From: Minisyncoccia bacterium
Lineage (GTDB): Bacteria > Patescibacteriota > Minisyncoccia > Phycocordibacterales > Phycocordibacteraceae
NCBI GenBank assembly: GCA_050011835.1
Contig: JBEKII010000003.1
Span: 39,842 to 103,841, forward strand
Reading direction: 5' to 3'
Length of the DNA stretch: 64,000 nucleotides
The translations under genes were made by a program, and so were the position numbers. Positions within the stretch are counted from its first letter, which is position 1; each line of letters starts with the position of its first letter. The notes under the pieces were generated by a model, which did not search any database, was not told the origin of the DNA, and saw only the letters and a list, made by a program, of their open reading frames with translations. Below, piece by piece: positions 15,045 through 44,310 of the stretch.

Positions 15045-15048
15045 TAAT

Positions 15049-28120: not shown

Positions 28121-28996
28121 ATGAATGAACGAAAGGGAAAACAAAAAGCGAAGAAGCTTTACGATCAGGAAGCTGGGGGTTATATCAAGCAGTACCAAGA
28201 AAATTATGAAGAGTATCCTGCCAACCTCATACGAATACAGTTTGTTATTGAAAGGCTAAAAAAGAATAATGTCAAAACAATTTTGGACGTTGGTTGCGGT
28301 ACCTGCGGACCAATGATCAAACTTCTTACAAACGGCTTTGTCGTTAAGGGTTTTGATTTTTCAAAAAAGATGATTGAGCAGGGCAGAGAAGAACTCCAGA
28401 AAGCTGGCTACGACCCTGAATTAATTCAAGTTGGTGATTTAGAGGATAAATCGGCTTTTTCAAATGAAAAATTTGACGCGATAATTGCTTTGGGCGTTTT
28501 CCCTCATATCGTGGATGAGCAGAGGGCACTATCCCATATGCGGAAGTTGTTGAATCCTGGCGGCCTGGTCTTTATTGAGTTCAGGAACGAATTGTTTGCT
28601 GTATATACTTTCAACAAATATTCTCTTGAATTTTTCACACAGAAGCTCATTAATGTACATTCCTTACCTCGAGATATCAGTACTGATGTAATGAATTTTT
28701 ATTCAAAAAAGTTTAAAGCCGGTACTATTGCCAAGAAAAAAGATGGCAAAATAGCTTATGCAGATACGCTGGCTAAGTTCCGCAACCCATTAAGCATAGG
28801 AAACGAATTATTCAATCCATGCGGTTTTTCTATTGCTAATCTGCATTTTTATCATTATCATGCACTCCCGCCCGTTTTTGAAAATAGATATCCAAAAATA
28901 TTCAGGGAATTAAGTCTAAAGTTGGAGAAAACCAATGACTGGAAGGGATATCTGATGGCCTCGGCTTTTGTTGTTGAGGCGAGAAGAACAGATTAG
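28121..28996 (+). CDS. Class I SAM-dependent methyltransferase
   Basis: ILDVGCGTCG motif I. 291 aa. Noticeably lower GC than flanking genes. Confidence 0.75.
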   Translation: MNERKGKQKAKKLYDQEAGGYIKQYQENYEEYPANLIRIQFVIERLKKNNVKTILDVGCGTCGPMIKLLTNGFVVKGFDFSKKMIEQGREELQKAGYDPELIQVGDLEDKSAFSNEKFDAIIALGVFPHIVDEQRALSHMRKLLNPGGLVFIEFRNELFAVYTFNKYSLEFFTQKLINVHSLPRDISTDVMNFYSKKFKAGTIAKKKDGKIAYADTLAKFRNPLSIGNELFNPCGFSIANLHFYHYHALPPVFENRYPKIFRELSLKLEKTNDWKGYLMASAFVVEARRTD

Positions 28997-30350: not shown

Positions 30351-31364
30351 ATGAATCTTGAGCAGCTCAAGGGTAAAACGGTGTTGATTACCGGCGGCAC
30401 CGGTTCTTTTGGTAAGAATTTTGCCAAACACATTCTCGCCGGTTCAAAACTGAAAAAACTCATTATATTTTCTCGTGACGAATTGAAACAGTCGCAAATG
30501 GAAGCGGAGATACGCGACGAGCGCATTCGTTTTTTTATCGGCGATGTGCGCGACCTTTCGCGATTGGAACGGGCTTTCCACGGCGTCGATATCGTTATAC
30601 ATGCCGCAGCGCTCAAGCAGGTACCTGCGCTTGAATACAATCCATTTGAAGCGGTGAAAACGAACATTCTCGGCAGTCAGAACGTCATTGAAGCGGCGCT
30701 CGACCAAAATGTGAAGAAAGCCATACTTGTATCAACCGATAAGGCAGTGATGCCAATTAATCTTTACGGGTCTACCAAATTATGTGCCGAGAAGCTTTTC
30801 ATCGCGGGCAATGCATACAGTGCAGGGAAGACGCATTTCAGCGTCGTCCGATACGGAAATGTTGTCGGTAGTCGCGGTAGTGTCATTGAAAAGTTGATGC
30901 TGAATAAAGATGCGCGCACCGTGCAAATAACCGACGAACGCATGACGCGTTTTTGGATAGACCTGAAGCAGGCGTTTCGCATTGTCCTATTCGCTCTGGA
31001 ACATATGGAGGGAGGAGAAATATTTATACCAAAAGCGCTATCAATGAAATTAACGGATCTTTTTGGTGTCCTTGCACCAAAAGCGAAACAGGACGTCATC
31101 GGTATTCGTCCGGGAGAGAAAGTGCACGAGGTATTGCTGACGAAAGAAGAGGCGCGCCACGCAGTGGGGCTTGAGGACTATTTTGTCATTTTGCCGGAAA
31201 ATATCAGCTCACTGAAACAAAAAAAAGGACTTCAGAAATTCCTGAAGCGAGGCAAACTGCTGAAATCCGATTTCCAGTTTTCGAGTAATGAGAGCGCCAA
31301 ACGCCTGTCGCAAAAGACGCTTCTTCGTCTGGTTGAGCAAATGGAAAGAACCTTGAGTCGCTAA
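30351..31364 (+). CDS. pseB: UDP-N-acetylglucosamine 4,6-dehydratase (inverting), PseB-like
   Basis: VLITGGTGSFGKNF...IFSRDELKQ...RFFIGDVRD...VIHAAALKQVP..EYNP.E..KTNI.G.QNV is nearly colinear with Campylobacter/Helicobacter PseB. YGSTKLCAEKLF (YxxxK). Confidence 0.85.
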   Translation: MNLEQLKGKTVLITGGTGSFGKNFAKHILAGSKLKKLIIFSRDELKQSQMEAEIRDERIRFFIGDVRDLSRLERAFHGVDIVIHAAALKQVPALEYNPFEAVKTNILGSQNVIEAALDQNVKKAILVSTDKAVMPINLYGSTKLCAEKLFIAGNAYSAGKTHFSVVRYGNVVGSRGSVIEKLMLNKDARTVQITDERMTRFWIDLKQAFRIVLFALEHMEGGEIFIPKALSMKLTDLFGVLAPKAKQDVIGIRPGEKVHEVLLTKEEARHAVGLEDYFVILPENISSLKQKKGLQKFLKRGKLLKSDFQFSSNESAKRLSQKTLLRLVEQMERTLSR

Positions 31365-32506
31365 TGATTCCTTACTCCACACAAAACATTAATGAGGAGG
31401 ATATCAAAGCGGTCGTGAAAGTACTGCGTTCAGGCTGGCTGACTCAAGGTCCCGCTATTGTGAGATTTGAAAAAGCCATTGCAAAAAAAGTTGGCACAAA
31501 ATTTGCGGTCGCTTTTAACTCCGGAACCGCCGCACTCCACGCAGCATATTTCGCCGCTGGAATAGGGAAGGAAGGTGAAGTCATCGTCCCCGCGCTTACC
31601 TTTGCCGCGACTGCCAATGCCGCGCTCTATCTCGGAGCGAAACCCGTCTTTGCGGATGTTGATCCCGAGACGGGGAACATGAGCGTGAGCGATGCGCGCA
31701 AAAAGATAACAAAAAAGACAAAAGCAATTATATCGGTCGACTATGGCGGCCGGCCGGCAGATTTGCGCGAATTCCGCGCACTTACAAAAAAACACAACCT
31801 TATTTTCATTGAGGATGCCGCACAAGCGTTTGGCGCGGAATATCGGGGTAAACCGGTTGGCACGCAAGCGGACATGACGATGTTCAGCTTTCATCCGGTA
31901 AAGTCCATTACCACGGGCGAGGGAGGCAGTATCGTGACGAACAGTCCAGTGTTTGAGGCGAGGCTTAAACTATTTCGCAGTCATGGTATCAGTAAAGACC
32001 CGAAAACATTTGCGCGGAAGAATTATGACGCATGGTATCAGGAAATGCAGGCGCTTGGATTCAATTATCGCATGCCAGAAATGTCCGCGGCTCTCGGCGA
32101 AAGCCAGTTGAGGCGCCTTGATTCTTTTATTGCAAAACGCCGCACGGTCGCTAAACGATATCAAAAGATATTAGAGAAGATTCCAAATCTCATGCTCCCG
32201 CCAGCCGAACGTGTTTATGAGAAATCAGCTTGGCATCTTTATCCGGTACGGCTTGCACCGAAAATTGCACGAAAGCGCGATGAAGTTTTTGCTAAAATGC
32301 GTAAGGCGGGTATTGGCGTACAAGTACATCATGTACCGGTCTACCGGCATCTTTTTTATGAAAAAATTGGTTACAAGAAAGGTCTTTGCCCCATCACCGA
32401 GACTTTCGTCGCATCCGAAATTTCTATCCCACTTTCCCCGAATATCACGCAGAAGCAACAAAAGTTTATCGCCACGACGCTGAAACATATTTTGGAATCC
32501 CTATGA
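31364..32506 (+). CDS. pseC: UDP-4-amino-4,6-dideoxy-N-acetyl-beta-L-altrosamine transaminase (DegT/DnrJ/EryC1 family), PseC-like
   Basis: DegT-family motifs. PLP-lysine context FSFHPVKSITTGEGG. Overlaps the pseB stop by 1 nt (TAATG). Confidence 0.8.
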   Translation: MIPYSTQNINEEDIKAVVKVLRSGWLTQGPAIVRFEKAIAKKVGTKFAVAFNSGTAALHAAYFAAGIGKEGEVIVPALTFAATANAALYLGAKPVFADVDPETGNMSVSDARKKITKKTKAIISVDYGGRPADLREFRALTKKHNLIFIEDAAQAFGAEYRGKPVGTQADMTMFSFHPVKSITTGEGGSIVTNSPVFEARLKLFRSHGISKDPKTFARKNYDAWYQEMQALGFNYRMPEMSAALGESQLRRLDSFIAKRRTVAKRYQKILEKIPNLMLPPAERVYEKSAWHLYPVRLAPKIARKRDEVFAKMRKAGIGVQVHHVPVYRHLFYEKIGYKKGLCPITETFVASEISIPLSPNITQKQQKFIATTLKHILESL

Positions 32507-33591
32507 AAATTCTCGTCGTCAGCGAAACGCCATCGAGCTTCTATTTAAAATACCTCACCTTATTTGTGAGGGCGCTCGCCAGGCACCATAAAGTTTTTGT
32601 CCTCACTGGCCAACCGTACGCCGCCGCTTTCCCAAAGAGCGTGCGCAAGGTTGAATCTGCGCCGTTTGAGTATTGCGCGCGCAGCTTTGACGAACAGAGC
32701 TTTTTGGAAGTGTTCGCTCTTGCAAAAAAATTGCATGTACGGCACATCCATTTTTGCCGGTTGGTCTATCCACAACGTCTCTACGCGGCGCTCTCTACCG
32801 CGCCGGAACTTCGCGTGAAAATTTCCTTCTCCATATTTGGAATTACCGAGATTTATACTCGTCCGATATTCAAAAAGTATCTCGCGCTTCTCTCGCGACA
32901 CAAAGCGGTTGGCCGTATCCTGGTGCACTCTAATGAACCGCAAGGTACCGCGACGCGCCTCAAAAAAGAAAAAACCTTCCGCGTGAGCGTTCTCTCATGC
33001 GTGTACGATCCCATCTATGAAGACCCGCGCGCCTACCGCATCTCGCAGACGGCGGCTCGTAAGCGCCTCGGATTGCCGCGAAACAAAAAACTCGCGCTCT
33101 ACTTCGGGAATTTCTTTTTTTCTAAAGGAGCGGATATTCTTCTTAAAGCTGCACAGAAATTTCCCAATAAGAATGTCATGTTCGTATTTGCCGGTAACAC
33201 CACAAGCGCTAACTTCGCGCTTAACCGCAAGGATTTTAACCGCAAGAATATTATCCTCGACGACCGCTTTATCCCCGAAGATGAAGCTGTGTTCTATTTG
33301 CGAGCCGCCGACGTGGTAGTGCTTCCATATCGCCGATTTTACAAAGACGGGACGAGCGGGCTTCTCGTGCAGGCAGCACTCGCCGAACGCCCCGCGATGG
33401 TGCCGGACATATTTCCTTTCAATGCCGTGGTGCGCACGTACAAAACAGGAATGGTCTTTACTCTTGAATCGCCTTCTGCGCTCGCTCGCTCGATCGCCCA
33501 AGCGCTCACGAGTGAAGGAAGGGGCGGATACGCACGCTATATTCATGAGATTGAGAGTTGGAAGGAACTTGCAAAAGCGGCTCTGATGTAA
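32503..33591 (+). CDS. Glycosyltransferase-like GT-B fold protein (GT4-like)
   Basis: Start at the internal ATG (MKILVVSE) with ATGA overlap on pseC. C-terminal VVLPYRRFYKDGTSGLLVQAALAERPAMVPDIFPF. Confidence 0.5.
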   Translation: MKILVVSETPSSFYLKYLTLFVRALARHHKVFVLTGQPYAAAFPKSVRKVESAPFEYCARSFDEQSFLEVFALAKKLHVRHIHFCRLVYPQRLYAALSTAPELRVKISFSIFGITEIYTRPIFKKYLALLSRHKAVGRILVHSNEPQGTATRLKKEKTFRVSVLSCVYDPIYEDPRAYRISQTAARKRLGLPRNKKLALYFGNFFFSKGADILLKAAQKFPNKNVMFVFAGNTTSANFALNRKDFNRKNIILDDRFIPEDEAVFYLRAADVVVLPYRRFYKDGTSGLLVQAALAERPAMVPDIFPFNAVVRTYKTGMVFTLESPSALARSIAQALTSEGRGGYARYIHEIESWKELAKAALM

Positions 33592-33611
33592 TAAAGTATT
33601 TGATTATATAT

Positions 33612-34664
33612 ATGTTTGACCCCTACAATTCCGGCTTTTGGAAGGGCAAGAAAGTTCTCGTGACAGGAGGAGCTTCCTTTATTGGAAGCCACCTCTGCGA
33701 GCGCCTCGTTGACGCAGGTTCAATCGTGCGAGTCGCAGATGATTTCTCTTCCGGCAAACGCAAGAATCTTTCTTCAATCGCCAAGAAAATACGGATATAT
33801 AAAGGCGATTTGCGTGAACGCCCATTTGCGGAGAAGGTAATGAAGGGTATAGATATCGTTTTCCATCTTGCGGCGAGTCACGGCGGCCGCGGTTTTATCC
33901 ATACGCACCCGGTTGAATGCTCAACCAATTTAATTCTCGATGGCGTTGTCTTCGCTGCAGCACACAAGGCAAAAGTGGACCGTATTTGTTTCGCTTCTTC
34001 AGCATGCGTCTATCCTTCGCATCTGCAGGACTCGCGCGTGGACGGCACTAAAATATTTTTGCGGGAAGAGGACGCACATCATTTTGAACAGGGTAAGGCG
34101 AATGCTGACTTGGAATATGGCTGGGCAAAATTTATGGGCGAGATGGTGCTCAACGCCTACTACAAACAGTACGGGCAGAAAAGCGTCTCATGCCGGATTT
34201 TCACCGCGTACGGTGAGCGGGAGAACGAGACCCACGCGGTCGTTGCCTTCATCGCCCGCGCATTTATCGGTATGGACCCATACATTATCTGGGGCACGGG
34301 CGAACAAGACCGCAATTTTACCTATGTGGGCGATACGGTGGAAGGGCTCATGCGTGCGTGTGAGCGGATAACCGACGGGAGCCCCATCAACGTCGGCACC
34401 GCCGAGCACATCACCGTCAACGACGCTGTTGCTGAAGTATTTTCAATCATAGGTTTTACGCCGAAAAAAATTAAGCGCGATCTCACGAAACCTGTAGGAG
34501 TGTTTAGCCGCGCGGCGGACACCACCCGAAATCGCGCGCTCCTGAAGTGGGAACCCAAAACAAGTTTTACCGAAGGATTCCGCCGCACTATCAGCTGGTA
34601 TACCGCCACCAAAGATAAGAAATATGTTCGGGCTAACCTAGAGCGGCTTCTCAACGAGCGTTAA
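33612..34664 (+). CDS. NAD-dependent epimerase/dehydratase family protein (extended SDR)
   Basis: Start at the internal ATG (MFDPYNSGFWKGKKVLVTGGASFIGSHL). YGWAKFMGE (YxxxK). Confidence 0.75.
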   Translation: MFDPYNSGFWKGKKVLVTGGASFIGSHLCERLVDAGSIVRVADDFSSGKRKNLSSIAKKIRIYKGDLRERPFAEKVMKGIDIVFHLAASHGGRGFIHTHPVECSTNLILDGVVFAAAHKAKVDRICFASSACVYPSHLQDSRVDGTKIFLREEDAHHFEQGKANADLEYGWAKFMGEMVLNAYYKQYGQKSVSCRIFTAYGERENETHAVVAFIARAFIGMDPYIIWGTGEQDRNFTYVGDTVEGLMRACERITDGSPINVGTAEHITVNDAVAEVFSIIGFTPKKIKRDLTKPVGVFSRAADTTRNRALLKWEPKTSFTEGFRRTISWYTATKDKKYVRANLERLLNER

Positions 34665-34669
34665 CGCGC

Positions 34670-34698
34670 TTGACAAAACATGGCTATCTGCTATGCTG
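34670..34698 (+). promoter_or_regulatory. Sigma70-like promoter (TTGACA-17 bp-TATGCT) upstream of the NUDIX gene
   Basis: TTGACA at 34670-34675 and TATGCT at 34693-34698 with a 17-bp spacer. GAGGAGGA Shine-Dalgarno sits ~8 nt before the ATG at 34748. Confidence 0.5.
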
Positions 34699-34747
34699 AA
34701 TAGCAGAGTTTTCTGGTCATTAAATTAAGCGAAGAGGAGGAAATGTC

Positions 34748-35227
34748 ATGAGAATGACAAATAGTCAGTATGCAGAGGTTTTTGACAGGACCTCGGGATT
34801 GGGAGTTGTCCGAGCCTGTGTTGACCTTGTCGTCACAAGCCAGAAAGGGATCGCGCTCGTTAAGCGCAGCATCCCACCACAGGTCGGTGCCTGGCACTTG
34901 CCTGGTGGCAAGATCGAGAGCGGCGAAAGCTTTGAAGAGTTCGCCGCCAGAACAGCACATCACGACCTCGGCATAGAAGTCGAGATTGTCGGCGCGGTCG
35001 GCGGTATGAATTTTCCCGCCGAGAAGTCGACCATGGAAATCGATGGCGTGGAGTGCGAGATCATCGTCCACTCTATGTCAGTCGTTCTCCACTGCCGCGC
35101 GAAGTCATTGGACATTCGCGGCAGTGCGGAATGGAAGAACGTTGGGTGGTTCACCGCCGCACCAATCCCAGCGCATTCCATTCACATTCCGTGGCTTCTC
35201 GAGCACAGTTTCTTTACACCGGCTTGA
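34748..35227 (+). CDS. NUDIX hydrolase
   Basis: Nudix box GGKIESGESFEEFAARTAHHDLGIEV (G-x5-E-x7-REuxEExGu pattern). Confidence 0.8.
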   Translation: MRMTNSQYAEVFDRTSGLGVVRACVDLVVTSQKGIALVKRSIPPQVGAWHLPGGKIESGESFEEFAARTAHHDLGIEVEIVGAVGGMNFPAEKSTMEIDGVECEIIVHSMSVVLHCRAKSLDIRGSAEWKNVGWFTAAPIPAHSIHIPWLLEHSFFTPA

Positions 35228-35244
35228 TCCGGTGCTCACTGCAA

Positions 35245-35279
35245 CGCTCGCCACATTCCGGTGGCGAGCGTTTTGATTT
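35245..35279 (+). terminator. Rho-independent terminator
   Basis: CGCTCGCCAC-attccg-GTGGCGAGCG followed by TTTTGATTTG. Confidence 0.7.
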
Positions 35280-35311
35280 GCAAAAGAATATAAATCTTGT
35301 ACTATCAGCGT

Positions 35312-36634
35312 ATGAAAAAGTCCCAAGGCACCGGGCAAAAGCTGTGGGAAAAGGCAAAGAAGCTCATTCCCGGCGGGAATCAGTTGCTTTCCAAGCGTGC
35401 GGAAATGTTTTTGCCGGAGCAATGGCCCGCTTATTATTCAAGAGCGAAAGGATGCGAAGTGTGGGATCTTGACGGTAATCGTTATGTAGATATGGGCAGA
35501 ATGGCGGTGGGGAGTTGCCTACTCGGTTATGCCGATCCGGATGTCAATAGGGCAGTGAAAGATGCGGTGGACCGCGGTTCAATGTCAACGCTGAATGCAC
35601 CCGAAGAAGTAGAACTTGCGGAGCTTTTGTGCAAAATACATCCTTGGGCGCATATGGCGCGCTTCGCGCGCGGTGGAGGAGAAGCAATGGCTATCGCGGT
35701 GCGCATCGCGCGCGCCTCTACCGGTCGTGACATCATTGCTTTTTGCGGTTATCACGGTTGGGCCGATTGGTATCTGGCGACAAATCTCGGTACAACCGAT
35801 GGGCTCAAAGAACATCTGCTCGCCGGGCTTGAAGCAAAAGGCGTACCGCAAGGGTTGCGCGGCAGTATTTTCCCTTTTCGCTACAATCATTTTGAAGAGC
35901 TTGAAGCGATCGTTAAGCACGCGGGCTCGCGACTTGCGGCGATTGTCATGGAACCGCTCCATAACGAAGAACCGAGAAATGATTTTCTTAAAAAAATTCG
36001 CACAATCGCCGACAGAGCCGGCGCTGCTCTTATTTTTGATGAAGTATCAATCGGCTGGAAGCTCACTTACGGAGGTGCACATCTTATATACGGTGTCAAT
36101 CCCGATATCGCCGTTTTCAGCAAAGCGATGAGCAACGGCTTCCCGATGGCGGCGGTTATCGGCACGCGCTCCGTGATGCAGGCGGCGCAGAATACTTTTA
36201 TATCAAGTACCTACTGGACTGACCGTACCGGCCCTGTAGCGGCACTTGCAACGCTTAAGAAAATGAAGAGATTGAATGTGCCGAAACGTATCGCCGCCGC
36301 GGCCGCGCAGATGCGCGCGGGCTGGGCAAGCATAGCAGAAAAACATGGACTGAAAATCAAAATCAGTGGACCGGTCGCCTATAATACGTTCTCTTTCCTC
36401 TCTGAAGACACACAGGCGCTGAGAACGCTCTTTACGCAGGAAATGCTTGAACGCGGATTTCTCGCGTCAACCGAATTCAATCCTTCCTGTGCCCATACTT
36501 CCGCGCATATCAAACGCTACATTCGTGCGCTCGACAACGTATTCGCCGAGATTCGTAAAGCAATAGACACTAACTCCGTACATAAACGTCTCAAAGGACC
36601 AATCGCACATTCCAACTTTGAACGTCTGAACTAA
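35312..36634 (+). CDS. Class III (glutamate-1-semialdehyde aminomutase-like) PLP-dependent aminotransferase
   Basis: Start at the ATG (MKKSQGTGQKLWE). AT-III family architecture. FDEVSIGWKLTYGG...FSKAMSNGFP (Lys in the SKA context). Confidence 0.75.
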   Translation: MKKSQGTGQKLWEKAKKLIPGGNQLLSKRAEMFLPEQWPAYYSRAKGCEVWDLDGNRYVDMGRMAVGSCLLGYADPDVNRAVKDAVDRGSMSTLNAPEEVELAELLCKIHPWAHMARFARGGGEAMAIAVRIARASTGRDIIAFCGYHGWADWYLATNLGTTDGLKEHLLAGLEAKGVPQGLRGSIFPFRYNHFEELEAIVKHAGSRLAAIVMEPLHNEEPRNDFLKKIRTIADRAGAALIFDEVSIGWKLTYGGAHLIYGVNPDIAVFSKAMSNGFPMAAVIGTRSVMQAAQNTFISSTYWTDRTGPVAALATLKKMKRLNVPKRIAAAAAQMRAGWASIAEKHGLKIKISGPVAYNTFSFLSEDTQALRTLFTQEMLERGFLASTEFNPSCAHTSAHIKRYIRALDNVFAEIRKAIDTNSVHKRLKGPIAHSNFERLN

Positions 36635-36641
36635 TAAAAAA

Positions 36642-36667
36642 GTGGGCGAAGCTCGCGCTTCGCCCAC
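36642..36667. terminator. Bidirectional rho-independent terminator between convergent genes
   Basis: AAAAAA-GTGGGCGAAGC-tcgc-GCTTCGCCCAC. A T-run follows on the minus strand (TTTTTTATTA) and A/T-rich sequence on the plus strand. Confidence 0.65.
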
Positions 36668-36682
36668 TAAGGCGTTTGTTGA

Positions 36683-37219
36683 CTAATGACGCAGCCGCAG
36701 CATCGCGTCTATCTGCCCATAAGTTTTCACGAGAATGTCCTTTTGTTTACAGAACTTTAGGATTTCCTCGTGCATCTGGAGTTTCGGATCGTAATAGGGG
36801 ACAACATGCGGATGGAAGACGAGGGGGACAAATACCGTTTTCTCCACCTCATTCGCACGACGAAGCGCCTCTTCTAAGAGCTGAATGTAATATCCATTCA
36901 TTTTTGTTCCTCGAACGCTGAAGCTCTCTTCTTCCTCGTCAAAGACTAAAAGCTTTGTTGGTTGTACGAAGTGCACATCATAGGCACCGACCGCGGGAAT
37001 TTCGAGAATGTCCCCGAATCCTTCTTTGCTGTAGAAGAACGATGTCGTATTCTCGCCGGGCACGTTCCACTCTCGCTGTCCTGCCTTAAGCCATGAAGAC
37101 ACGTACCGAAGCCCATTGTTTCGTATCGCCTGAAGTATTTCGCGATTTTCGGAACCGAAGGGCTGAACATTTCCCATAGGCGTGCGCAACCCTATTGGTT
37201 GGACGCCAAGCCAGCGCAC
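36683..37219 (-). CDS. Hypothetical protein, 178 aa
   Basis: ORF only, with a terminator directly after its stop. No family recognised. Confidence 0.4.
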   Translation of the reverse strand: MRWLGVQPIGLRTPMGNVQPFGSENREILQAIRNNGLRYVSSWLKAGQREWNVPGENTTSFFYSKEGFGDILEIPAVGAYDVHFVQPTKLLVFDEEEESFSVRGTKMNGYYIQLLEEALRRANEVEKTVFVPLVFHPHVVPYYDPKLQMHEEILKFCKQKDILVKTYGQIDAMLRLRH

Positions 37220-37294
37220 GATCGTTTCATTCGCTTTCCGTAACTGTTCGTTGGCCTCGGAGCCGACAATCGTTCGCGAAAGTTTCTGTAATAC

Positions 37295-38254
37295 CTAACA
37301 TACCTCTTGAACACTTTTGAGCGGTGATTGTAACACGACCGACGAGACGTGATTTTGAAGTTTTTGCATAAGGTATTCTTTCGGCGTCTTTCCCTTAAGC
37401 GCCATGTGCGGACGTCTCTCATTGTACTCCCGCTCCCATCCTTGCAAGAGGCGTATGCAATGCTGGATTGATACGAAGCGGTTGATCCCATAGAATTCTT
37501 CTCCATCGGTGCGGTGCGACCGCTCCACCTTGCCGTTCTCTTCGGGAGAACGGATCTTAATTTTGCGATGGCTGATACCAAGGTCCTGCAAATGCCAGGA
37601 GAACTGTTCCGAAAACTCGGAGCCGTTGTCGGTCTGAATTTGTTTGATGGCGAACGGAAGTGCTTTTTGCACCTTGTCCACGAAATCAGCCGCATTCTTC
37701 ACGGTGTTGTGATCATAGATGCGGAGGACTCGGTATCTCGTGCAGTCATCGATGGCGGTGAACTGATAGTATCGCTTGCCCGCAAATGCTTCGGAATTAA
37801 GGAATTTAACGTCAACTTGTAGTCGATCACCCGGGAGTGGTTTTTCGTATCGTTGCGGATAGCGTTGCCATTTCTTCCTGTACGTCAGGCGGTTGAGACT
37901 GTGTTCTTTGTAGAGGCGCCAGATAGTGGTTTTGGAGACGAACCAGTTGTACTTCTGCTTCAGATGATACGACATGCGAACCGGACCGTACCCACGCTGA
38001 AGCCGTAGCTCGATAATCTTTTCTCGCACATCCTTTGGGAGCCATCGGTGAATTTTGTACGGTCGACACGACTTCGAGCGCAGCCCTTCTTCTCCGAGGC
38101 TCAGGTACCGGTGGTACCAGAAGTAGAAGGTGCCCCTCGCAATGCCGAAGTACCGGCATGTCGGGGCCACTTTCTTGGTGATGTTTTGATAACACTCGAT
38201 CCAGCGCAGGCGCTGTTGAGCACGAGGATCGTTAAGTACTTTTCTCGTTTCCAT
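37295..38254 (-). CDS. IS481-family DDE transposase (HTH + rve integrase core)
   Basis: N-terminal HTH (CRYFGIARGTFYFWYHRY). Catalytic DDE residues in QVDVKFL / YQFTAIDDCTR, IQTDNGSEF, and NGKVERSHRT. Confidence 0.85.
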   Translation of the reverse strand: METRKVLNDPRAQQRLRWIECYQNITKKVAPTCRYFGIARGTFYFWYHRYLSLGEEGLRSKSCRPYKIHRWLPKDVREKIIELRLQRGYGPVRMSYHLKQKYNWFVSKTTIWRLYKEHSLNRLTYRKKWQRYPQRYEKPLPGDRLQVDVKFLNSEAFAGKRYYQFTAIDDCTRYRVLRIYDHNTVKNAADFVDKVQKALPFAIKQIQTDNGSEFSEQFSWHLQDLGISHRKIKIRSPEENGKVERSHRTDGEEFYGINRFVSIQHCIRLLQGWEREYNERRPHMALKGKTPKEYLMQKLQNHVSSVVLQSPLKSVQEVC

Positions 38255-38310
38255 ACTTTGTGGGTGAAAGTTGATAATTTTCGCTCACACAAAGTGTACA
38301 GGAGGTGGTG
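37295..38310 (-). mobile_element. IS481-family insertion sequence (~1.0 kb) with imperfect terminal inverted repeats
   Basis: Left-end ..CCTCTTGAACACTTTTGAGCGGTGATTGTAACAC.. versus reverse complement of the right end ..CCTCCTGTACACTTTGTGTGAGCGAAAATTATCAAC.. . A single DDE transposase ORF lies inside. Boundaries are uncertain by ~10 bp. Confidence 0.65.
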
Positions 38311-38398
38311 GGACACTATATTCGCAACACCCAGGCATTAAAGTTGCGAAGGTATTGAACCATTACGCTTGGCTGACAGGATGGGAAAAAGATGAAAG

Positions 38399-38439
38399 AA
38401 GAGCCGGACGGTAAAGACCTCCGGCTCTTTGTATTTTTA
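38399..38439 (+). terminator. Hairpin plus T-run (terminator-like) immediately downstream of the IS, followed by a TATAAT box at 38444-38449
   Basis: AGAGCCGGA-cggtaaagacc-TCCGGCTCT then TTGTATTTTTA. TATAAT lies 39 nt before the probable pseF start. Confidence 0.45.
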
Positions 38440-38487
38440 TGTTATAATGTTAATACGATATCGACACATCATTTATTGAGCGATATG

Positions 38488-39264
38488 TATATGCAAAAAA
38501 CTGTAGCTATCATTCAAGCGCGGATGGGCTCGACTCGGTTGCCCGGCAAAATTTTGAAGCCGATTTTAGGATGGCCGATGCTTGCACAAATGCTTGAACG
38601 CGTAAAACAAGCGAAAAAGATTGACGCAATTGTTGTCGCGACAACTGATAAGACAGAAGACGATGCCATTGCACAACTTGCGCAGGAATGCAGTGTCAAT
38701 TGTTTCCGCGGAGACGAAAACGACGTGCTGGATAGATTTTATAAGGCGGCCAAAGAAGCCGGTGCGAGCATTGTGGTACGGCTCACGGGCGATTGTCCGC
38801 TCCATGATCCTGCGGTCATTGATGAAGTCATTGGGCGCTTTTTGAACAATAAGCTTGATTATGCATGCACCCCTGTGAATTATCCCGAGGGATTAGATAC
38901 CGAAGTATTTTTATTTTCAGCGCTTGAACGCGCATGGAAGAGCGCGACATTGCCGTCCGAGCGCGAACATGTGACGCGATATATCCGCAATCACCCGGAA
39001 TTATTTAATGTTGGTGAGTTATGGAAACAAGGCGACTATGATTACTCCGTTATGCATTGGTCGGTGGATACCGAACAGGATTTTGATTTTGTGACAAAAG
39101 TATTTGAGCAACTTTATCCGGTCAATCCACGTTTTAACAAAGACGATGTGTTTGAATTGCTCGCACGGCGGCCGGAACTTCTGGAGATAAATAAAGGAGG
39201 TACTGGATATGAGGGTTTAGCAAAATCTTTGAAAGAGGATATGGTTGTAAAAAGTCATCTATGA
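38488..39264 (+). CDS. pseF: Acylneuraminate/pseudaminic acid cytidylyltransferase (CTP_transf_3, SpsF/PseF-like)
   Basis: AIIQARMGSTRLPGKILKPI N-terminal nucleotide-binding motif and LTGDCPL. The start is uncertain: the track ORF begins at 38392, but that stretch overlaps the hairpin/-10 and reads as non-family sequence. Confidence 0.65.
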   Translation, partial: YMQKTVAIIQARMGSTRLPGKILKPILGWPMLAQMLERVKQAKKIDAIVVATTDKTEDDAIAQLAQECSVNCFRGDENDVLDRFYKAAKEAGASIVVRLTGDCPLHDPAVIDEVIGRFLNNKLDYACTPVNYPEGLDTEVFLFSALERAWKSATLPSEREHVTRYIRNHPELFNVGELWKQGDYDYSVMHWSVDTEQDFDFVTKVFEQLYPVNPRFNKDDVFELLARRPELLEINKGGTGYEGLAKSLKEDMVVKSHL

Positions 39265-40187
39265 CAACACAAAAAAGTAAACTCGTACTCGGCACCGTTC
39301 AGCTCGGCATGAAATACGGGCTCAACAATACTCATGGACAACCGACAAAGAAAGAATCCTTTGCGATATTGGATGCGGCGCTTGCCGTCGGCATTACCAC
39401 ATTTGATACTGCATATGCGTACGGCACCTCCGAAGACATTCTCGGCGCATGGATTCAGGAACGTTCCCTGGCGGGGAAGGTCCATATCATTTCAAAAATG
39501 AAACCGCATGTTCTGAACGATTATCCTGACGGAACGAAAGCCGCTGATATCGTACGAAGGGAATTAGTAAAATCATTACAGCGTCTTCATGTGGAGTCTC
39601 TTGACGGTTATTTATTTCACTCACCGTATTACATCTATCTGCACCATATGGTTGAAGGATTGCAAAAAGCTCGGGATGCCGGCATGGTGAAAAATATCGG
39701 CGTGTCAATCTATGACGAGCCCGAAGCCCTTCAAGCGGTTGAACTCGGCGTTGACTATGTGCAGGTGCCGTACAATGCATTTGACCAGCGGTTGGACGCC
39801 ACTGATTTTTTTGGCATAGCGAAGAAAAATAATGTAACCGTTTTTGCTCGCAGTCCTTTTCTGCAGGGATTAGTGCTAATGCGACCGAACCAGTTGCCGA
39901 AGCATCTTTCTTATATCCAGCCGTATCTAGAGCAGTTTATTGAAATTATCGGACGATATCACCTGTCTCCTGTTCAGGCCGCGCTCCTCTTTGCGAACGA
40001 ACACTGCAGGGCGGATTATATAGTTTTCGGTGTTGAAACTCTCTCTCAACTAAAAGAGAATATTGCCACCGTGAAAGATTCTGCATCTTCTCTTGGCAGT
40101 GGTTGGATCCTTGAAATAGAAAATTGCTTCAGGAATATTAATCATGGAGCCATTAATCTGAGTTTATGGAGCACGATAAAGCGATGA
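39261..40187 (+). CDS. Aldo/keto reductase family oxidoreductase
   Basis: LGTVQLGMKYGLNN, FDTAYAYGTSE (Tyr catalytic context), and AKR fold length 308 aa. ATGA overlap upstream. Confidence 0.8.
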   Translation: MTTQKSKLVLGTVQLGMKYGLNNTHGQPTKKESFAILDAALAVGITTFDTAYAYGTSEDILGAWIQERSLAGKVHIISKMKPHVLNDYPDGTKAADIVRRELVKSLQRLHVESLDGYLFHSPYYIYLHHMVEGLQKARDAGMVKNIGVSIYDEPEALQAVELGVDYVQVPYNAFDQRLDATDFFGIAKKNNVTVFARSPFLQGLVLMRPNQLPKHLSYIQPYLEQFIEIIGRYHLSPVQAALLFANEHCRADYIVFGVETLSQLKENIATVKDSASSLGSGWILEIENCFRNINHGAINLSLWSTIKR

Positions 40188-40194
40188 ATTATCT

Positions 40195-40803
40195 ATGACT
40201 CCAGATGCGATTATCATTTTATCCGCAGGCTCCATTGCGTATGAAGAAGGCGGGAGGACCCATTGGCGCGCTACAACATACGACAATAGCGATGCGTTCG
40301 GGACACTTGGCGGCCGCGATCGCCTAGAAGCCGCCGCTCTGCTTGCCGAAAAATATCCGGATGCGTATTTCGTAACGGTCTCACGCAACTTTACGGGCCT
40401 CCCAACGTTGGCGCAGATATATGCCGATGAATTGCGCGAATTGGGCGTGGCACCTGAACGCATCATACAAGAGGAACATTCGACAAACACTGAGACCGTT
40501 GTACAACAAGCAATACGGCTCGCACAGAAAAAAGGATGGAAGAAAATCCTTTTCCTTTCAAGCGATTACCATCTCCCGCGTATCATCGCGTTTTATCGCC
40601 GCCAGAAAGATGACATCTTAGGAGATTTTGTTTCTTCCGAATCGATACTTGGTGCAGTTGATTCGAAATTTGCCGCGCGATTTGCCGCGGTGCAGAAAAC
40701 TGCCGCGTACCAAACGCGGATTGCATCGGAGGCGCGCGGACTTGCAGCCCTTGAGGAAGGTGCCTATCAGAGCGCTCCCGCAGAAGACAAACACGAGCAC
40801 TAG
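40195..40803 (+). CDS. DUF218 (YdcF/ElyC/SanA-like) domain protein
   Basis: IIILSAG...FLSSDYHLPR is a typical DUF218 core. Confidence 0.6.
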   Translation: MTPDAIIILSAGSIAYEEGGRTHWRATTYDNSDAFGTLGGRDRLEAAALLAEKYPDAYFVTVSRNFTGLPTLAQIYADELRELGVAPERIIQEEHSTNTETVVQQAIRLAQKKGWKKILFLSSDYHLPRIIAFYRRQKDDILGDFVSSESILGAVDSKFAARFAAVQKTAAYQTRIASEARGLAALEEGAYQSAPAEDKHEH

Positions 40804-40823
40804 AGGTATTATCCCGTTACAAT

Positions 40824-41519
40824 ATGAACAAAAAAACCGTCATCATCACCGGCGTATCATCGGGTCTCGGAAAGGCCCTTTTTGATACCCTGCGCGGCAC
40901 GGGTGTGCGTCTCATCTGTATTTCGCGCACATTTCTTAGCTATCAAACTGCACTTTCAGACAAAAATGTGACGTTGCTCGTATGCGACCTCAGCAATGTG
41001 AAAGAAGTATTTTCTATCACCCAGAAATTGAACAAGATTTTGGAAGGTGCAAATGACATTGTTTTTATAAACAACGCCGCAACAATCGCGCCAATAGGGC
41101 TCATCGGCGAGATTGACGACGGGGCGATTGTCGCGGCTGCGAATATAAATTTTGTGAGTCCCATGCTCATCATGAATGTTTTGTGCAAGTTACAAAAAGC
41201 GAAAAAACTTACCTTTATTCATCTCACAACAGGTGCGGCACGCACGCCCATCATTGGCTGGCCGTTGTACTGTTCCACCAAAGCCGCGCTCAAAATGTTC
41301 TTTGCGATAATAAAGAGGCAATATAAGAACAACAAAAGATTTATCGTCCACGAATTTGACCCCGGCGTGATGAACACGCCCATGCAAAAACAGATACGGC
41401 AATCCTCGCGCAAGAATTTTCCGCGCGTTGAAGAGTTTAAAAAACTGCAACGGGCGCGCAAACTGTCAAACCCGTTGTTTGTCGCGCAGAAATTAGTCAA
41501 GCGCTATATACGCGTATGA
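40824..41519 (+). CDS. Short-chain dehydrogenase/reductase (SDR)
   Basis: TGVSSGLGKAL glycine motif, NNAA, and YCSTKAALKMF (YxxxK). Confidence 0.8.
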   Translation: MNKKTVIITGVSSGLGKALFDTLRGTGVRLICISRTFLSYQTALSDKNVTLLVCDLSNVKEVFSITQKLNKILEGANDIVFINNAATIAPIGLIGEIDDGAIVAAANINFVSPMLIMNVLCKLQKAKKLTFIHLTTGAARTPIIGWPLYCSTKAALKMFFAIIKRQYKNNKRFIVHEFDPGVMNTPMQKQIRQSSRKNFPRVEEFKKLQRARKLSNPLFVAQKLVKRYIRV

Positions 41520-42220
41520 AGATAGGCGTCCTCGCAGATATTCACGGCAATAATATTGCGCTTCACGCGGTACTGGAAGAAGCGTTAAAAGAGGGCATTG
41601 ACCGGCTTTTTGTGCTTGGTGATTTCGTTGGTTATTACTACAGTCCGAACGAAGTACTTGCGCAACTGGCGAATTTTAAAACGACGATGATACGCGGCAA
41701 TCACGAAACGATGATGGAGGTGGCGCAACATGATGAAGTGTTAGCAAAAAAGATACGCGCGAAATACGGAAGCGGAGCATCGCTCGCGCTGGAAAACCTT
41801 TCTAAAGAACAGATTAAGCAGTTACGAGAGCTTCCAGAAACCGCCGAAATTGCTCTTGATGGCGTAACGTTCCTATTGTGTCACGGCTCTCCGTGGGACA
41901 CGAATGAATATATATATCCGGATGCGGATGAGACGACGCTCCGTGCGTGCGCATCGCAAGGGGCGGATTTCGTATTGCTTGGACACACCCATTATCCCTT
42001 GATGTATACCTATAAAGGCAAGGTCGTACTTAACCCGGGATCGGTAGGGCAGCCGAGGGATATAGGAAATATGGCGAGTTGGGCTATTATTGATACCGCG
42101 AATCGGAGCGTTATACAAAAACGGACAATGTTCGATACCGCTCCGATTCTGCAAGAAGCGCAACGCAGAGACCCTGCGGTTCCTTATCTCGTGGACGTGC
42201 TCCGAAGAAAAAAGATATGA
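41516..42220 (+). CDS. Metallophosphoesterase (calcineurin-like, YfcE/MJ0936 type)
   Basis: GVLADIHGN, GDFVGY, GNHE, LCHGSP, GHTH metal-binding motif series. Confidence 0.8.
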   Translation: MKIGVLADIHGNNIALHAVLEEALKEGIDRLFVLGDFVGYYYSPNEVLAQLANFKTTMIRGNHETMMEVAQHDEVLAKKIRAKYGSGASLALENLSKEQIKQLRELPETAEIALDGVTFLLCHGSPWDTNEYIYPDADETTLRACASQGADFVLLGHTHYPLMYTYKGKVVLNPGSVGQPRDIGNMASWAIIDTANRSVIQKRTMFDTAPILQEAQRRDPAVPYLVDVLRRKKI

Positions 42221-43170
42221 AAAAATATAAATCAATTTTGGTAACCGGTTGCGGAGGCGACATCGGCACCGGTATCGGCCGCATCCTAAAAGAAACTGGT
42301 CTCGTGCAAACGATTATTGGCGCCGATATACGTCCGGACAATGCAGGAATATGCGTTTTTGACACCTGTGATGTGCTGCCGAGGGCGGATGACTCGCAAT
42401 ATTTTGACGTTCTTGAACAGCTCGTTAAGAAATATTCTGTGGACTTGCTGATTCCTATGTCCGAGGCCGAGATACGTTTGTGGTATCGAAACGATTATTC
42501 CGAAACGTTTGCCGGAGTGCCGGTGGTTATGCCGAATCGTGAAGTGTTCGATGTCGCTATCGACAAGCTTGTTACCGCCGAGTTTTTAAAGTCACACGGC
42601 CTGCCGTATCCCTGGACTATGCTGGTTCGCGACGGGACCCCGCGCGCGTTCCCCTGCATCATTAAAAGTCGCGGTATCGGAAGCAAAGGAGGAGTTGAAA
42701 TTGTTGATAAATTCTCGGTTTCCTATTTTAGTGCCAAGCGCCCCGACAATATCTGGCAAGAATACCTTGAAGGCGAAGAGTACACCGCCGGCGTCTACGG
42801 TTGTCAGAATGGAGAAATACGAACTATCGTTATGAAGCGGAAACTTTCCGGCGGTATGACGGGCTACACTTCGGGAGGGGAAGTTGTTGACGAACCGGAC
42901 ATAACGCGCGTGCTCATGCAACTGGCGAAGGGACTTTCGCTTAAAGGCAGTATCAACGTCCAATTACGGCTCACAAAAAAAGGGCCTGTCATATTTGAAA
43001 TAAATCCGCGTTTCTCCAGCACCGTCGTATTCCGGCATAAACTGGGATTCAAGGACGTGGTGTGGTCCTTGGAAGAAAAGTTGGGATATCCCGCCTCTTC
43101 GTATGTGCCGCCCAAAGCGGGTACGAAATTCTACAAGGGCTATACGGAATACATCACATCCACATCTTGA
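42217..43170 (+). CDS. ATP-grasp domain protein
   Basis: IIKSRGIGSKGG, EEYTAGVY, and EINPRFSS (ATP-grasp Mg/ATP site). 317 aa. Confidence 0.75.
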   Translation: MKKYKSILVTGCGGDIGTGIGRILKETGLVQTIIGADIRPDNAGICVFDTCDVLPRADDSQYFDVLEQLVKKYSVDLLIPMSEAEIRLWYRNDYSETFAGVPVVMPNREVFDVAIDKLVTAEFLKSHGLPYPWTMLVRDGTPRAFPCIIKSRGIGSKGGVEIVDKFSVSYFSAKRPDNIWQEYLEGEEYTAGVYGCQNGEIRTIVMKRKLSGGMTGYTSGGEVVDEPDITRVLMQLAKGLSLKGSINVQLRLTKKGPVIFEINPRFSSTVVFRHKLGFKDVVWSLEEKLGYPASSYVPPKAGTKFYKGYTEYITSTS

Positions 43171-43245
43171 CAACAGCGTTTTAATGAGTATTCTATTTAC
43201 AGGCGCTCATTTTGTTATTAACATTAAAAAAGAAAGGGAGGTATC

Positions 43246-44310
43246 ATGAAAAAAAATACGGTCAAAATAGGAAAGCGCACGATTGGACCAGGACAGCCGG
43301 TCTTTATGATCGCAGAGATGTCCGGTAATCACAATCACAACGTCAGGCGTGCACATGCCATCGTTGATGCCGCCGCGGATGCCGGTGCCGATGCCCTTAA
43401 GCTCCAAACCTATACCGCCGATACCATCACGCTCAATTCCGACCGACCCGAGTTTCTCGTCACGTGGCAGAACAAAAAGCGTACGCTCTATGACCTTTAC
43501 CAAGAAGCGGGAACGCCGTGGGAATGGCATGCGGAGCTTTTCGCTCATGCGCGTGAACGCGGCATGATACCGTTCTCTTCGCCCTTCGATACGACCGCGG
43601 TTGACTTTCTTGAGCGACTCAATGTTCTTCTCTATAAAGTCGCCTCGTTTGAAGTCGTAGACATTCCGCTTCTTGAAGCGATAGGGAAGACGAAGAAACC
43701 GGTCATCATGTCGCGCGGGATGTCGAGTTTTGAAGAGCTCCAGCTCGCTATTGATACCCTGCGCAACGCCGGCACCAAAGATATCGTAATTCTGCATTGT
43801 GTAAGCGCATATCCGGCGAAGCCAGAGGATATGAATCTGAAAACGATTCCGTACATTGCGGAACGCTTTGGCATTCCGGCGGGATTATCAGACCATACGC
43901 TTGGCACTGATGTCGCCGTTGCTGCGGTAGCGCTTGGTGCTCGGGCGATAGAAAAGCACATGACACTCAAGCGTGCCGAGGGCGGTGTTGATTCGGAGTT
44001 CTCGCTTGAACCGGCCGAGTTCGCGGCGCTCGTCCAGTCAGCGCACATTGTAGAAAGTGCGCTTGGGAAACCGACTGATGCGCGCGGCGCGCGCGAAGAA
44101 GGAGAAGCCCGATTTCGCAAGTCGCTATTCGCGGCGGCCGATATCAAAAAGGGCGAGATCTTTACCGAGAAGAATATCCGCTCGGTGCGACCGAGCGCGG
44201 GCTTACCGTCCAAGTATTATCATCAAGTGTTGGGTAAGCGCGCAACGCGCGATATTTCCTTCGCATCGCCGCTTAAATGGAATATGGTCCAAGGCGGGCG
44301 GCGAAAATAG
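43246..44310 (+). CDS. pseI: Pseudaminic acid synthase (NeuB-family sialic acid synthase), PseI-like
   Basis: IAEMSGNHNHNV...AIVDAAADAGADALKLQTYTADTIT is colinear with PseI/NeuB N-terminal TIM-barrel motifs. C-terminal SAF domain. Confidence 0.8.
   Translation: MKKNTVKIGKRTIGPGQPVFMIAEMSGNHNHNVRRAHAIVDAAADAGADALKLQTYTADTITLNSDRPEFLVTWQNKKRTLYDLYQEAGTPWEWHAELFAHARERGMIPFSSPFDTTAVDFLERLNVLLYKVASFEVVDIPLLEAIGKTKKPVIMSRGMSSFEELQLAIDTLRNAGTKDIVILHCVSAYPAKPEDMNLKTIPYIAERFGIPAGLSDHTLGTDVAVAAVALGARAIEKHMTLKRAEGGVDSEFSLEPAEFAALVQSAHIVESALGKPTDARGAREEGEARFRKSLFAAADIKKGEIFTEKNIRSVRPSAGLPSKYYHQVLGKRATRDISFASPLKWNMVQGGRRK

Follow-up and report, generated by a model that had tools for sequence, protein, structure and literature searches.

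Nonulosonic acids are found as decorations on flagella, pili, S-layers and capsules, and they influence host and phage recognition. In the canonical pathway of Helicobacter pylori and Campylobacter jejuni, which leads to pseudaminic acid (Pse) activated with cytidine monophosphate (CMP), uridine diphosphate (UDP)-GlcNAc is turned into a 6-deoxy-4-amino-altrose derivative, then into a nine-carbon acid and finally into the CMP-sugar. We analyzed a stretch of 64,000 nucleotides, hereafter the window, from a Minisyncoccia bacterium of the Patescibacteriota (GenBank assembly GCA_050011835.1, contig JBEKII010000003.1, positions 39,842 to 103,841 of the forward strand). It contains a locus that follows the same logic and that shares with the canonical pathway orthologues of PseB, PseC and PseI at the equivalog level. 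This locus probably provides the core biosynthetic genes of a nonulosonate pathway of the pseudaminic acid type. It differs from the canonical pathway in an SpsF-type activating enzyme and in six interleaved extra genes, coding for a class-III aminotransferase (AT3), an aldo-keto reductase (AKR), a DUF218 protein, a short-chain dehydrogenase/reductase (SDR), a metallophosphoesterase and an ATP-grasp ligase.

Several described systems resemble parts of this locus. The sps genes of Bacillus subtilis (SpsM, C, D, G, E, F) also place an SpsF-type enzyme beside a NeuB-family synthase and a DegT aminotransferase; however, they include the PseG-like SpsG and the GNAT protein SpsD, their product is legionaminic acid, and they are devoid of AT3, AKR, DUF218 and the ATP-grasp cassette (PMC7439481). 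The clusters of Vibrio B9-25K2, Pseudosulfitobacter plasmid pSMR1-1, Achromobacter veterisilvae and Legionella pneumophila serogroup 6 share the association of AT3, SpsF and AKR with PseB, PseC and PseI. SpsF is fused to AKR in the Vibrio Pse cluster (PMC7371886), and in the Legionella O-antigen locus an SpsF-like gene is listed together with PseG, a class-III aminotransferase and an aryl-alcohol dehydrogenase (PMC3694923). Unlike the window, these four clusters mostly keep PseG and a PseH-type GNAT (none found in Achromobacter), have no DUF218 and follow the order AKR-SpsF-AT3. The locus for tailoring of the C. jejuni flagellin glycan has, like the window, an aminopeptidase-like protein and methyltransferases beside pseB and pseC, tied there to a di-O-methylglyceroyl N-acyl group, but it differs in possessing PseF, PseG and PseH and in having no AT3-SpsF-AKR module (PMC3068675).

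The resemblance to the Campylobacter ptm genes, proposed in an earlier sequence-only reading of this DNA, is a loose analogy only. A parallel can also be drawn with the triad WbpB-WbpE-WbpD, an oxidoreductase, an aminotransferase and an N-acetyltransferase that convert a sugar hydroxyl into an acetamido group. An oxidoreductase, an aminotransferase and an acyl-transferring enzyme are likewise clustered here, with the differences that they come from other families and that their substrate would be a nonulosonate or CMP-nonulosonate. The aciABCD genes of Acinetobacter were discarded as an analogue of the accessory genes because they belong to different families (SDRs). In the literature on pseudaminic acid with these enzymes, we found no functional study of the AT3-SpsF-AKR or SDR-phosphoesterase-ATP-grasp modules. 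The searchable literature likewise gave no description of the form found in Patescibacteria, in which DUF218 is present and PseG is not, and a search combining Patescibacteria and pseudaminic was uninformative.

To place the window among its relatives, we assembled 79 loci centred on SpsF-like genes, with one genome per species, together with loci around exact homologues, and mapped the window proteins onto them by tblastn. Full-flank loci are the 41 in which 6 kb or more is available on each side of SpsF. Among species-representative genomes, the nearest loci come from metagenome-assembled genomes (MAGs) of Saccharibacteria, Kaiserbacteria and Paceibacterota. The window also forms part of a metagenome contig of 118.8 kb (JGI 3300037993, Ga0427919_0000369), and NCBI has MAG proteins identical to those of the window under the name Minisyncoccia bacterium, Minisyncoccia being a class of the Minisyncoccota (Patescibacteria or CPR). 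Models of NCBIfam were run on 30 open reading frames (ORFs) of the island between 5 and 49 kb, and the other ORFs were compared with Pfam only.

Canonical enzymes and missing steps

Three genes of the locus code for canonical Pse enzymes:
30351-31364, plus strand: PseB, UDP-GlcNAc 4,6-dehydratase (inverting); TIGR03589 at 424.2 bits, cut-off 407.75 (NCBIfam equivalog)
31364-32506, plus strand: PseC aminotransferase; TIGR03588 at 479 bits, cut-off 423.5
43246-44310, plus strand: PseI, pseudaminic acid synthase; TIGR03586 at 459.5 bits, cut-off 340.25

The competing models remain below their own cut-offs. The PseB frame reaches 59.6 bits with LegB and 247.6 bits with FnlA, both well under the threshold, the PseC frame 238.8 bits with LegC (cut-off 420) and the PseI frame 308.7 bits with NeuB_NnaB (cut-off 399.65). 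The solved structure closest to PseI is the pseudaminic acid synthase 8H2C (E = 3.9e-90), ahead of SpsE (1e-53) and NeuB (2e-46), and the NCBI entry identical to the protein is named "pseudaminic acid synthase". The block from 30351 to 44310 is thus of the Pse type, as the sequence-only reading had stated: the synthase is a PseI and not of the Neu or Leg type, and the dehydratase is inverting, not retaining. All genes named in that reading were recovered, with positions that agree exactly or differ by a few codons.

On the other hand, no model of PseG, PseH or PseF was matched by any of the 30 island ORFs compared with NCBIfam. PseG (TIGR03590) was also sought by tblastn with two verified PseG sequences, whose best match in the window had E = 0.17, and with four PseH-like GNATs taken from related loci, tblastn found no significant match in the window. 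The absence of PseG and PseH had been noticed before and is confirmed within these limits. The cytidylyltransferase, described earlier as PseF/SpsF-like, turned out to be of the SpsF type; it reaches 36.5 bits with the PseF model TIGR03584, far from the cut-off of 205.7. The sole PseH-like trace in the island is a protein of weak similarity encoded upstream of PseB:
27408-28109, plus strand: FemAB/GNAT-fold acyltransferase; Acetyltransf_6 at 5e-5, FemAB and GNAT models weaker, TIGR04421 at 35.8 bits, below cut-off

A homologue of this protein (52% identity) is encoded directly upstream of PseB in a related locus (L009), and the protein is a candidate for replacing PseH, as an N-acyl or aminoacyl transferase. 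Since three of the six defining enzymes were searched for and not found, the locus is not a member of the canonical six-enzyme set. All 13 pathway ORFs are full length, and the catalytic motifs of AKR and AT3 are present.

Accessory genes and the proposed pathway

Three accessory genes form a first module:
35312-36634, plus strand: AT3, class-III aminotransferase similar to glutamate-1-semialdehyde aminomutase; Aminotran_3 at 8e-43
38485-39264, plus strand: SpsF-type cytidylyltransferase; CTP_transf_3 at 1e-37
39261-40187, plus strand: AKR; Aldo_ket_red at 3e-39

The HemL models all stay under their cut-offs for AT3, which has the lysine that would bind pyridoxal phosphate (FSKAM) and an FDEV motif. 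In AKR, which overlaps the SpsF stop codon by 4 nt, the D-Y-K-H tetrad is intact and the motifs DTAYAYG, ISK and LFHSP are found. Because its homologues are about 257 aa long, the SpsF-like protein was taken to start near 38485 rather than at 38392. Its closest solved structure, 6OEW (5.5e-40), is named merely "cytidylyltransferase".

The AT3-SpsF-AKR trio accompanies NeuB-family genes across many phyla. Among the 41 full-flank loci, 40 have a NeuB-family gene within 10 kb of SpsF, 35 a PseC-like gene, 34 PseB, 26 AT3 and 23 AKR, and AT3 and SpsF are at most 300 bp apart in 38 of 51 loci. Two orders recur. Patescibacteria (loci L005-L022) have PseB-PseC-AT3-SpsF-AKR-DUF218-(variable)-NeuB, and Lentisphaerota, Planctomycetota, Verrucomicrobiota, Campylobacterota and Pseudomonadota have PseB-PseC-AKR-SpsF-AT3-...-PseI. 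SpsF and AT3 even form a single ORF of 679 aa in Achromobacter veterisilvae (L072) and of 677 aa on the Pseudosulfitobacter plasmid pSMR1-1 (L092). Since AKR and AT3 are found fused to a cytidylyltransferase, their substrate may be the nonulosonate or its CMP derivative.

We propose that the SpsF-type enzyme is likely a CMP-nonulosonate synthetase. This proposal is based on two observations. Firstly, its domain is the sole cytidylyltransferase-type gene of complete RefSeq clusters such as that of Pseudosulfitobacter pseudonitzschiae pSMR1-1 (312591-322189), which reads pseB-pseC-AKR-GNAT-hypothetical-SpsF::AT3-pseG::GNAT-pseI; no further gene of this type occurs in the compact clusters L072 and L005 either. 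Secondly, spsF of B. subtilis is required for the transfer, but not the synthesis, of legionaminic acid (PMC7439481). With the SpsF of syntenic sps-like loci in Halobacillus, the window protein shares 45-47% identity.

Side variants of the module were also observed. In L053, L057 and L024 (Marinamargulisbacteria, Burkholderiales and Dechloromonas), the order is PseB-like-(GT4)-AKR-SpsF-AT3-SDR-NeuB, where GT4 is a family 4 glycosyltransferase; there is no DegT aminotransferase and NeuB is just 28-30% identical to PseI. AT3 may be the sole sugar aminotransferase of these loci. A second SpsF paralogue (about 40% identity) lies beside a second DegT-family paralogue, or forms a tandem SpsF pair, in L028, L033, L048 and L077 and in Gemmatimonadaceae (L047, L054, L059, L061, L062, L076), so that SpsF-type proteins may have more than one role.

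The next gene codes for the DUF218 protein:
40195-40803, plus strand: DUF218/YdcF-like protein; Pfam DUF218 domain, YdcF-like alpha/beta fold

Of the 14 loci with an SpsF that shares 60% or more identity with that of the window, 13 contain DUF218, and in several proteins (P0101, P0118) DUF218 is joined to the SpsF C-terminus. The window subfamily comprises just 66 database clusters, most of them from Patescibacteria. When we compared its distribution with that of PseG in 58 NeuB-containing loci of at least 12 kb, no locus had both, 14 had DUF218 only, 23 PseG only and 21 neither (Fisher p = 3e-4, uncorrected for phylogeny). The structural model shows a YdcF/HUP-like nucleotide-binding fold, and a fold search returned YdcF and generic nucleotide-binding folds only, with no catalytic analogy. 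Because of its mutual exclusion with PseG and its fusion to SpsF, DUF218 is the top candidate for the missing UDP-sugar hydrolase (PseG) step, although we judge the assignment less likely than not to hold. If true, a DUF218 subfamily would receive its first biochemical function, as a new kind of nucleotide-sugar hydrolase.

A second module follows, directly upstream of PseI:
40824-41519, plus strand: classical SDR oxidoreductase; adh_short at 1e-22
41516-42220, plus strand: YfcE/PrpE-like metallophosphoesterase; Metallophos_2 at 2e-26, TIGR00040 at 72.7 bits, cut-off 56.25
42217-43170, plus strand: PylC-like ATP-grasp carboxylate-amine ligase; ATPgrasp_Ter, ATP-grasp_3 and PylC-like_N, PDB PylC structure 4FFL at 8e-7

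The entire order SpsF-AKR-DUF218-SDR-phosphoesterase-ATP-grasp-PseI is found in two other Patescibacteria species (L010 and L012, 52-80% identity; about 0.9 kb more between AKR and DUF218 in L010). The layout, regarded earlier as not canonical, is indeed so, but it is not peculiar to this genome. The order from SDR to NeuB also occurs in the unrelated bacteria L089 and L090 at about 50% identity, and in L088 the cassette lies inside a flagellin/Maf glycosylation island. These last three loci also have SpsF and AT3, and L088 and L089 additionally possess a PseH-like GNAT and a true PseG (TIGR03590 at 181 and 238 bits, cut-off 154). The cassette is thus an add-on to a complete pathway and not a replacement of PseG. 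For the same reason the phosphoesterase, which coexists there with PseG, is unlikely as a general PseG substitute; a local role is possible.

Fusions are found here as well, between ATP-grasp and GNAT (P0136) and between phosphoesterase and ATP-grasp (P0227). In L005, a close relative with the same chromosomal context, a single GNAT stands where the window has the cassette. The simplest reading would be that the cassette installs a non-acetyl N-substituent, aminoacyl or hydroxyacyl, a reading that we judge about as apt to hold as to fail. A FemAB-like protein and an ATP-grasp ligase are also paired in the type B flagellin modification cluster of Clostridium difficile (PMC5207246).

A possible pathway can be drawn from these assignments. 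PseB and PseC would produce UDP-4-amino-4,6-dideoxy-L-AltNAc, whose N4 would be acylated by an enzyme other than PseH, the FemAB/GNAT-like protein at 27408 and the ATP-grasp ligase being the candidates. UDP would be removed by a hydrolase other than PseG, for which DUF218 is preferred and the phosphoesterase and a NUDIX hydrolase encoded upstream of AT3 are alternatives. PseI would then condense the sugar with phosphoenolpyruvate and the SpsF-type enzyme would form the CMP-sugar. AKR and AT3 could tailor the nonulosonate or CMP-nonulosonate, in the simplest case by oxidation of a hydroxyl followed by transamination. Export and attachment would fall to the downstream ABC and Wzy_C proteins and to the upstream transferases described below. 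The product would likely be a Pse derivative activated with CMP, N-acylated by a group other than acetyl and perhaps bearing one more amino group.

A more specific hypothesis is that AKR, AT3 and an acylating enzyme, ATP-grasp here and GNAT elsewhere, turn a hydroxyl of Pse or CMP-Pse into an acylated amino group, which would give an undescribed triamino or aminoacyl nonulosonic acid, with DUF218 at the PseG step in Patescibacteria. As a whole this chain of assumptions is doubtful. In L092, AKR and AT3 are paired with an extra GNAT, and in L089 a GFO_IDH_MocA-type oxidoreductase is found where AKR would be; both pairings would fit oxidation, transamination and acylation in turn, a speculative sequence.

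Several points weigh against the proposed pathway. The roles of AT3, AKR, DUF218, SDR, phosphoesterase and ATP-grasp are all predictions. The exclusion between DUF218 and PseG follows the division between Patescibacteria and the other phyla and may reflect lineage history; the 21 loci of 58 with neither gene include several clusters from outside Patescibacteria, and the DUF218 fold differs from those of glycoside or UDP-sugar hydrolases. PseG, PseH and PseF could lie beyond the 64-kb window, and polar effects of the insertion sequence (IS) described below may silence the downstream half of the operon. Finally, the loci with two SpsF paralogues (L028, L033, L048, L077) raise the possibility that the AT3-linked SpsF activates something other than a nonulosonate, and in L006 an APH-family kinase and a HAD hydrolase are encoded directly beside SpsF-AKR, the usual pattern of CDP-alcohol (cytidine diphosphate) activation.

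These last two points would be accounted for if AT3-SpsF-AKR were a separate pathway that cytidylylates a non-nonulosonate substituent, such as an amino-alcohol or amino-acid phosphate, the true CMP-Pse synthetase being encoded elsewhere. The failure of the PseF model to match the SpsF-like protein would also fit, and the combination of an aminotransferase, an ATP-grasp enzyme and a phosphatase recalls the serinol-phosphate/ethanolamine-phosphate amidation of the C. jejuni capsule. However, SpsF has a NeuB-family companion in all but one of the 41 full-flank loci, and L072, L092 and L005 have no other cytidylyltransferase-type gene. Furthermore, CTP_transf_3 enzymes such as KdsB and NeuA use 2-keto-3-deoxy sugar acids, and the genetics of SpsF in B. 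subtilis fit the activation of a CMP-nonulosonate. We therefore consider a separate substituent pathway unlikely and retain SpsF as the probable enzyme of CMP-sugar formation.

The window is one instance of a recurrent layout, whose sub-modules are found in dozens of species, including RefSeq-annotated genomes (L072, L092). AT3-SpsF-AKR and SDR-phosphoesterase-ATP-grasp are conserved enzyme sets represented in thousands of database proteins. Cultivable bacteria that carry them, among them Pseudosulfitobacter, Achromobacter and Azospirillum, make it possible to ask what the modules do to Pse, whether SpsF-type enzymes are the general alternative to PseF and whether a DUF218 protein can replace PseG.

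Insertions within the operon

Between AT3 and SpsF, the window contains three further features:
36641-36668, minus strand: intrinsic terminator of a truncated ORF; hairpin with a 12-bp stem and a T-run
36683-37294, minus strand: 5'-truncated ORF, family not assigned; its frame continues to the IS end
about 37294 to 38312, minus strand: IS481-family IS of about 1.02 kb with approximate ends; transposase and inverted repeats

The IS481 element reported between the aminotransferase and the cytidylyltransferase is real, but it interrupts no pathway gene. Its transposase (37295-38254, minus strand) reaches 248.4 bits with NF033577 (cut-off 224), and its inverted repeats of 16 nt (37302-37317 and 38291-38306), 88% complementary, are the only two matches in the window. 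The transposase score, the terminal repeats and a length of about 1 kb are as expected for the family. By eye we recognised no short target-site duplication in its flanks, the exact ends being uncertain. The truncated ORF abuts the element on one side, which suggests an associated deletion or co-insertion. It has no Pfam or NCBIfam match and no homologue in any related locus, and the minus-strand ORF 36683-37219 was consequently rejected as a conserved gene. The spacer of about 170 bp between the IS and SpsF carries a hairpin with a T-run (38399-38429) and an extended -10 element TGTTATAAT (TGnTATAAT) at 38440-38448, 37 nt upstream of the SpsF start. A sigma-70-like pair TGTACA-16-TATATT (38295-38322, plus strand) lies over the right repeat of the IS and faces SpsF; such a pair is not above chance expectation.

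AT3 and SpsF are separated by 2-4 bp in L005 and L007 versus about 1.85 kb in the window. An insertion of about 1.7-1.85 kb, comprising the truncated foreign ORF, the terminator, IS481 and the spacer, thus separates the two genes, and the most likely effect of IS481 is to divide a single operon into two separately transcribed units. All three environmental copies, recovered from three samples, contain both the IS and the ORF fragment. A break inside IS481 in one contig suggests that the genome has several copies of the IS. The AT3-SpsF junction is a hot spot for insertions. In the Kaiserbacteria MAG L012 (8065-9868), it is occupied by an EamA-like transporter, a HIT-family hydrolase and an ORF of no named family.

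One could assume from this insertion that the cluster is decaying: IS481 and an adjacent deletion would have uncoupled or silenced the downstream genes, PseG, PseH and PseF would have been lost, and no finished nonulosonate would be made. An IS and a truncated ORF do sit within what is one operon in relatives, the missing target-site duplication suggests a rearrangement, and the three enzymes were not detected in island ORFs. However, the 13 pathway ORFs are all full length with intact motifs, the extended -10 element precedes SpsF, and the same arrangement recurs in the three samples. Moreover, all IS-free relatives in the Patescibacteria are also without PseG and PseF, so that this lack predates the IS. 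Decay thus appears quite improbable.

A second insert lies between PseC and AT3:
32503-33591, plus strand: GT4 glycosyltransferase; Glycos_transf_1 at 1.5e-14, no PseG match, weak likeness to WcaI
33612-34664, plus strand: extended SDR nearest to guanosine diphosphate (GDP)-mannose 3,5-epimerase; PDB 8SG0 and 2C59 at E about 5e-36, only 127 bits
34748-35227, plus strand: NUDIX hydrolase; NUDIX at 8e-12, weak match to GDP-mannose mannosyl hydrolase

In relatives, AT3 usually follows PseC directly. No homologue of this GT4 or of the NUDIX protein was found by tblastn in the 79 related loci, and the extended SDR gave matches of merely 23-30% identity. The three genes are probably a lineage-specific GDP-hexose cassette inserted in the operon and lying outside Pse synthesis. 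The suggestion that the GT-B protein at 32503 might stand in for PseG does not hold: it matches generic GT4 models only, is 25% identical to the GT4s of other clusters and is absent from relatives. NUDIX is similarly unlikely as a general PseG substitute since it is absent from the related loci, with a local role in UDP removal being possible.

The sequence-only reading had linked all these accessory genes to the nonulosonate pathway. Recurrence beside NeuB and gene fusions support this link for AT3, the SpsF-like protein, AKR, DUF218, SDR, phosphoesterase and ATP-grasp, but not for GT4, the epimerase and NUDIX. That the accessory genes as a whole are an accidental mosaic of unrelated operons with no functional tie to the nonulosonate genes is true of this last sub-block, which is missing from related loci and resembles a GDP-hexose cassette, but it is hardly credible for the other seven genes (35312-43170), which keep their order across phyla, with 4-nt overlaps between neighbours and five independent kinds of fusion among accessory genes.

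Flanking genes and the glycan island

The block lies within a surface-glycan island of about 45 kb, mostly on the plus strand, which extends from glycosyltransferases at about 5 kb to an ABC exporter and a Wzy_C/TPR protein at 48 kb. Ultra-small, host-dependent Patescibacteria thus devote some 45 kb to a glycan of this kind. Seven GT4 genes, GT2 genes, one GT9 gene and one PMT_2 protein are encoded between 5 and 24 kb. The nonulosonate genes come next, followed by those of the exporter and the Wzy_C/TPR protein and then by murB, secA, obg and gatB, which are housekeeping genes. The genes on either side of the block are the following:
20493-21065 and 24430-25068, minus strand: two hexapeptide acetyltransferases
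21096 and 22686: further methyltransferases
25148-27058, plus strand: 636-aa GT-B/Glyphos_transf-like protein; Glyphos_transf at 6e-6, weak
28121-28996, plus strand: S-adenosylmethionine-dependent methyltransferase; Methyltransf_11/25/31 at about 1e-17
29012-30289, plus strand: aminopeptidase-like DUF4910/DUF2172/HTH_47 protein of 425 aa; DUF4910 at 1e-105, DUF2172 at 3e-40, HTH_47 at 1e-24
44402-46162, plus strand: ABC exporter similar to MsbA/PglK/HepA; ABC_tran and ABC_membrane, with HepA, MsbA and PglK models below cut-off
46188-48365, plus strand: Wzy_C (O-antigen-ligase-like) membrane protein with C-terminal TPR repeats; Wzy_C at 9e-21 and TPR models

The hexapeptide acetyltransferases and the methyltransferases, which had been counted with the block, do exist but lie outside it. 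The protein at 25148 matches models of BFO_1060 family glycosyltransferase, LIC12162 and surf_polysacc weakly, all below cut-off. Its homologues are found upstream of PseB in the Patescibacteria loci L005, L009, L013, L014, L016, L019 and L022, and it is a candidate nonulosonate (Pse) transferase. The methyltransferase at 28121 adjoins the tailoring genes and may share their function. Homologues of the 29012 protein are encoded directly upstream of PseB in L007, L008 and L015. In C. jejuni, Cj1295 is needed for the 5-N-(2,3-di-O-methylglyceroyl) derivative of Pse (PMC3068675), and the 29012 protein is likened to it by size (about 430 aa) and description only. Since upstream genes recur in relatives, the functional unit probably begins near 25.1 kb and not at 30.35 kb.

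On the downstream side, the ABC exporter is syntenic in L005, L009, L010 and L012 and is likely a flippase for a glycan or lipid-linked glycan; the Wzy_C/TPR protein is syntenic in L005 and L012.

Other observations concern the rest of the window. A TraG/VirD4-like coupling protein of type IV secretion (2935-4674, plus strand) is encoded directly upstream of the island, and a 636-aa ORF inside it (14923-16833, plus strand) has no significant Pfam or NCBIfam match and a sub-threshold LrgB-like match only. No rRNA or tRNA gene was found in the 64-kb window, and such genes were rejected as the cause of the few ORFs between 56 and 64 kb, a region made of one giant ORF. The latter (56186-64000, plus strand) spans at least 2605 aa and exits the window end, with an HTH-like N-terminus and a later part rich in Ser and Thr. 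The encoded protein may be displayed on the surface and glycosylated by the enzymes of the island.

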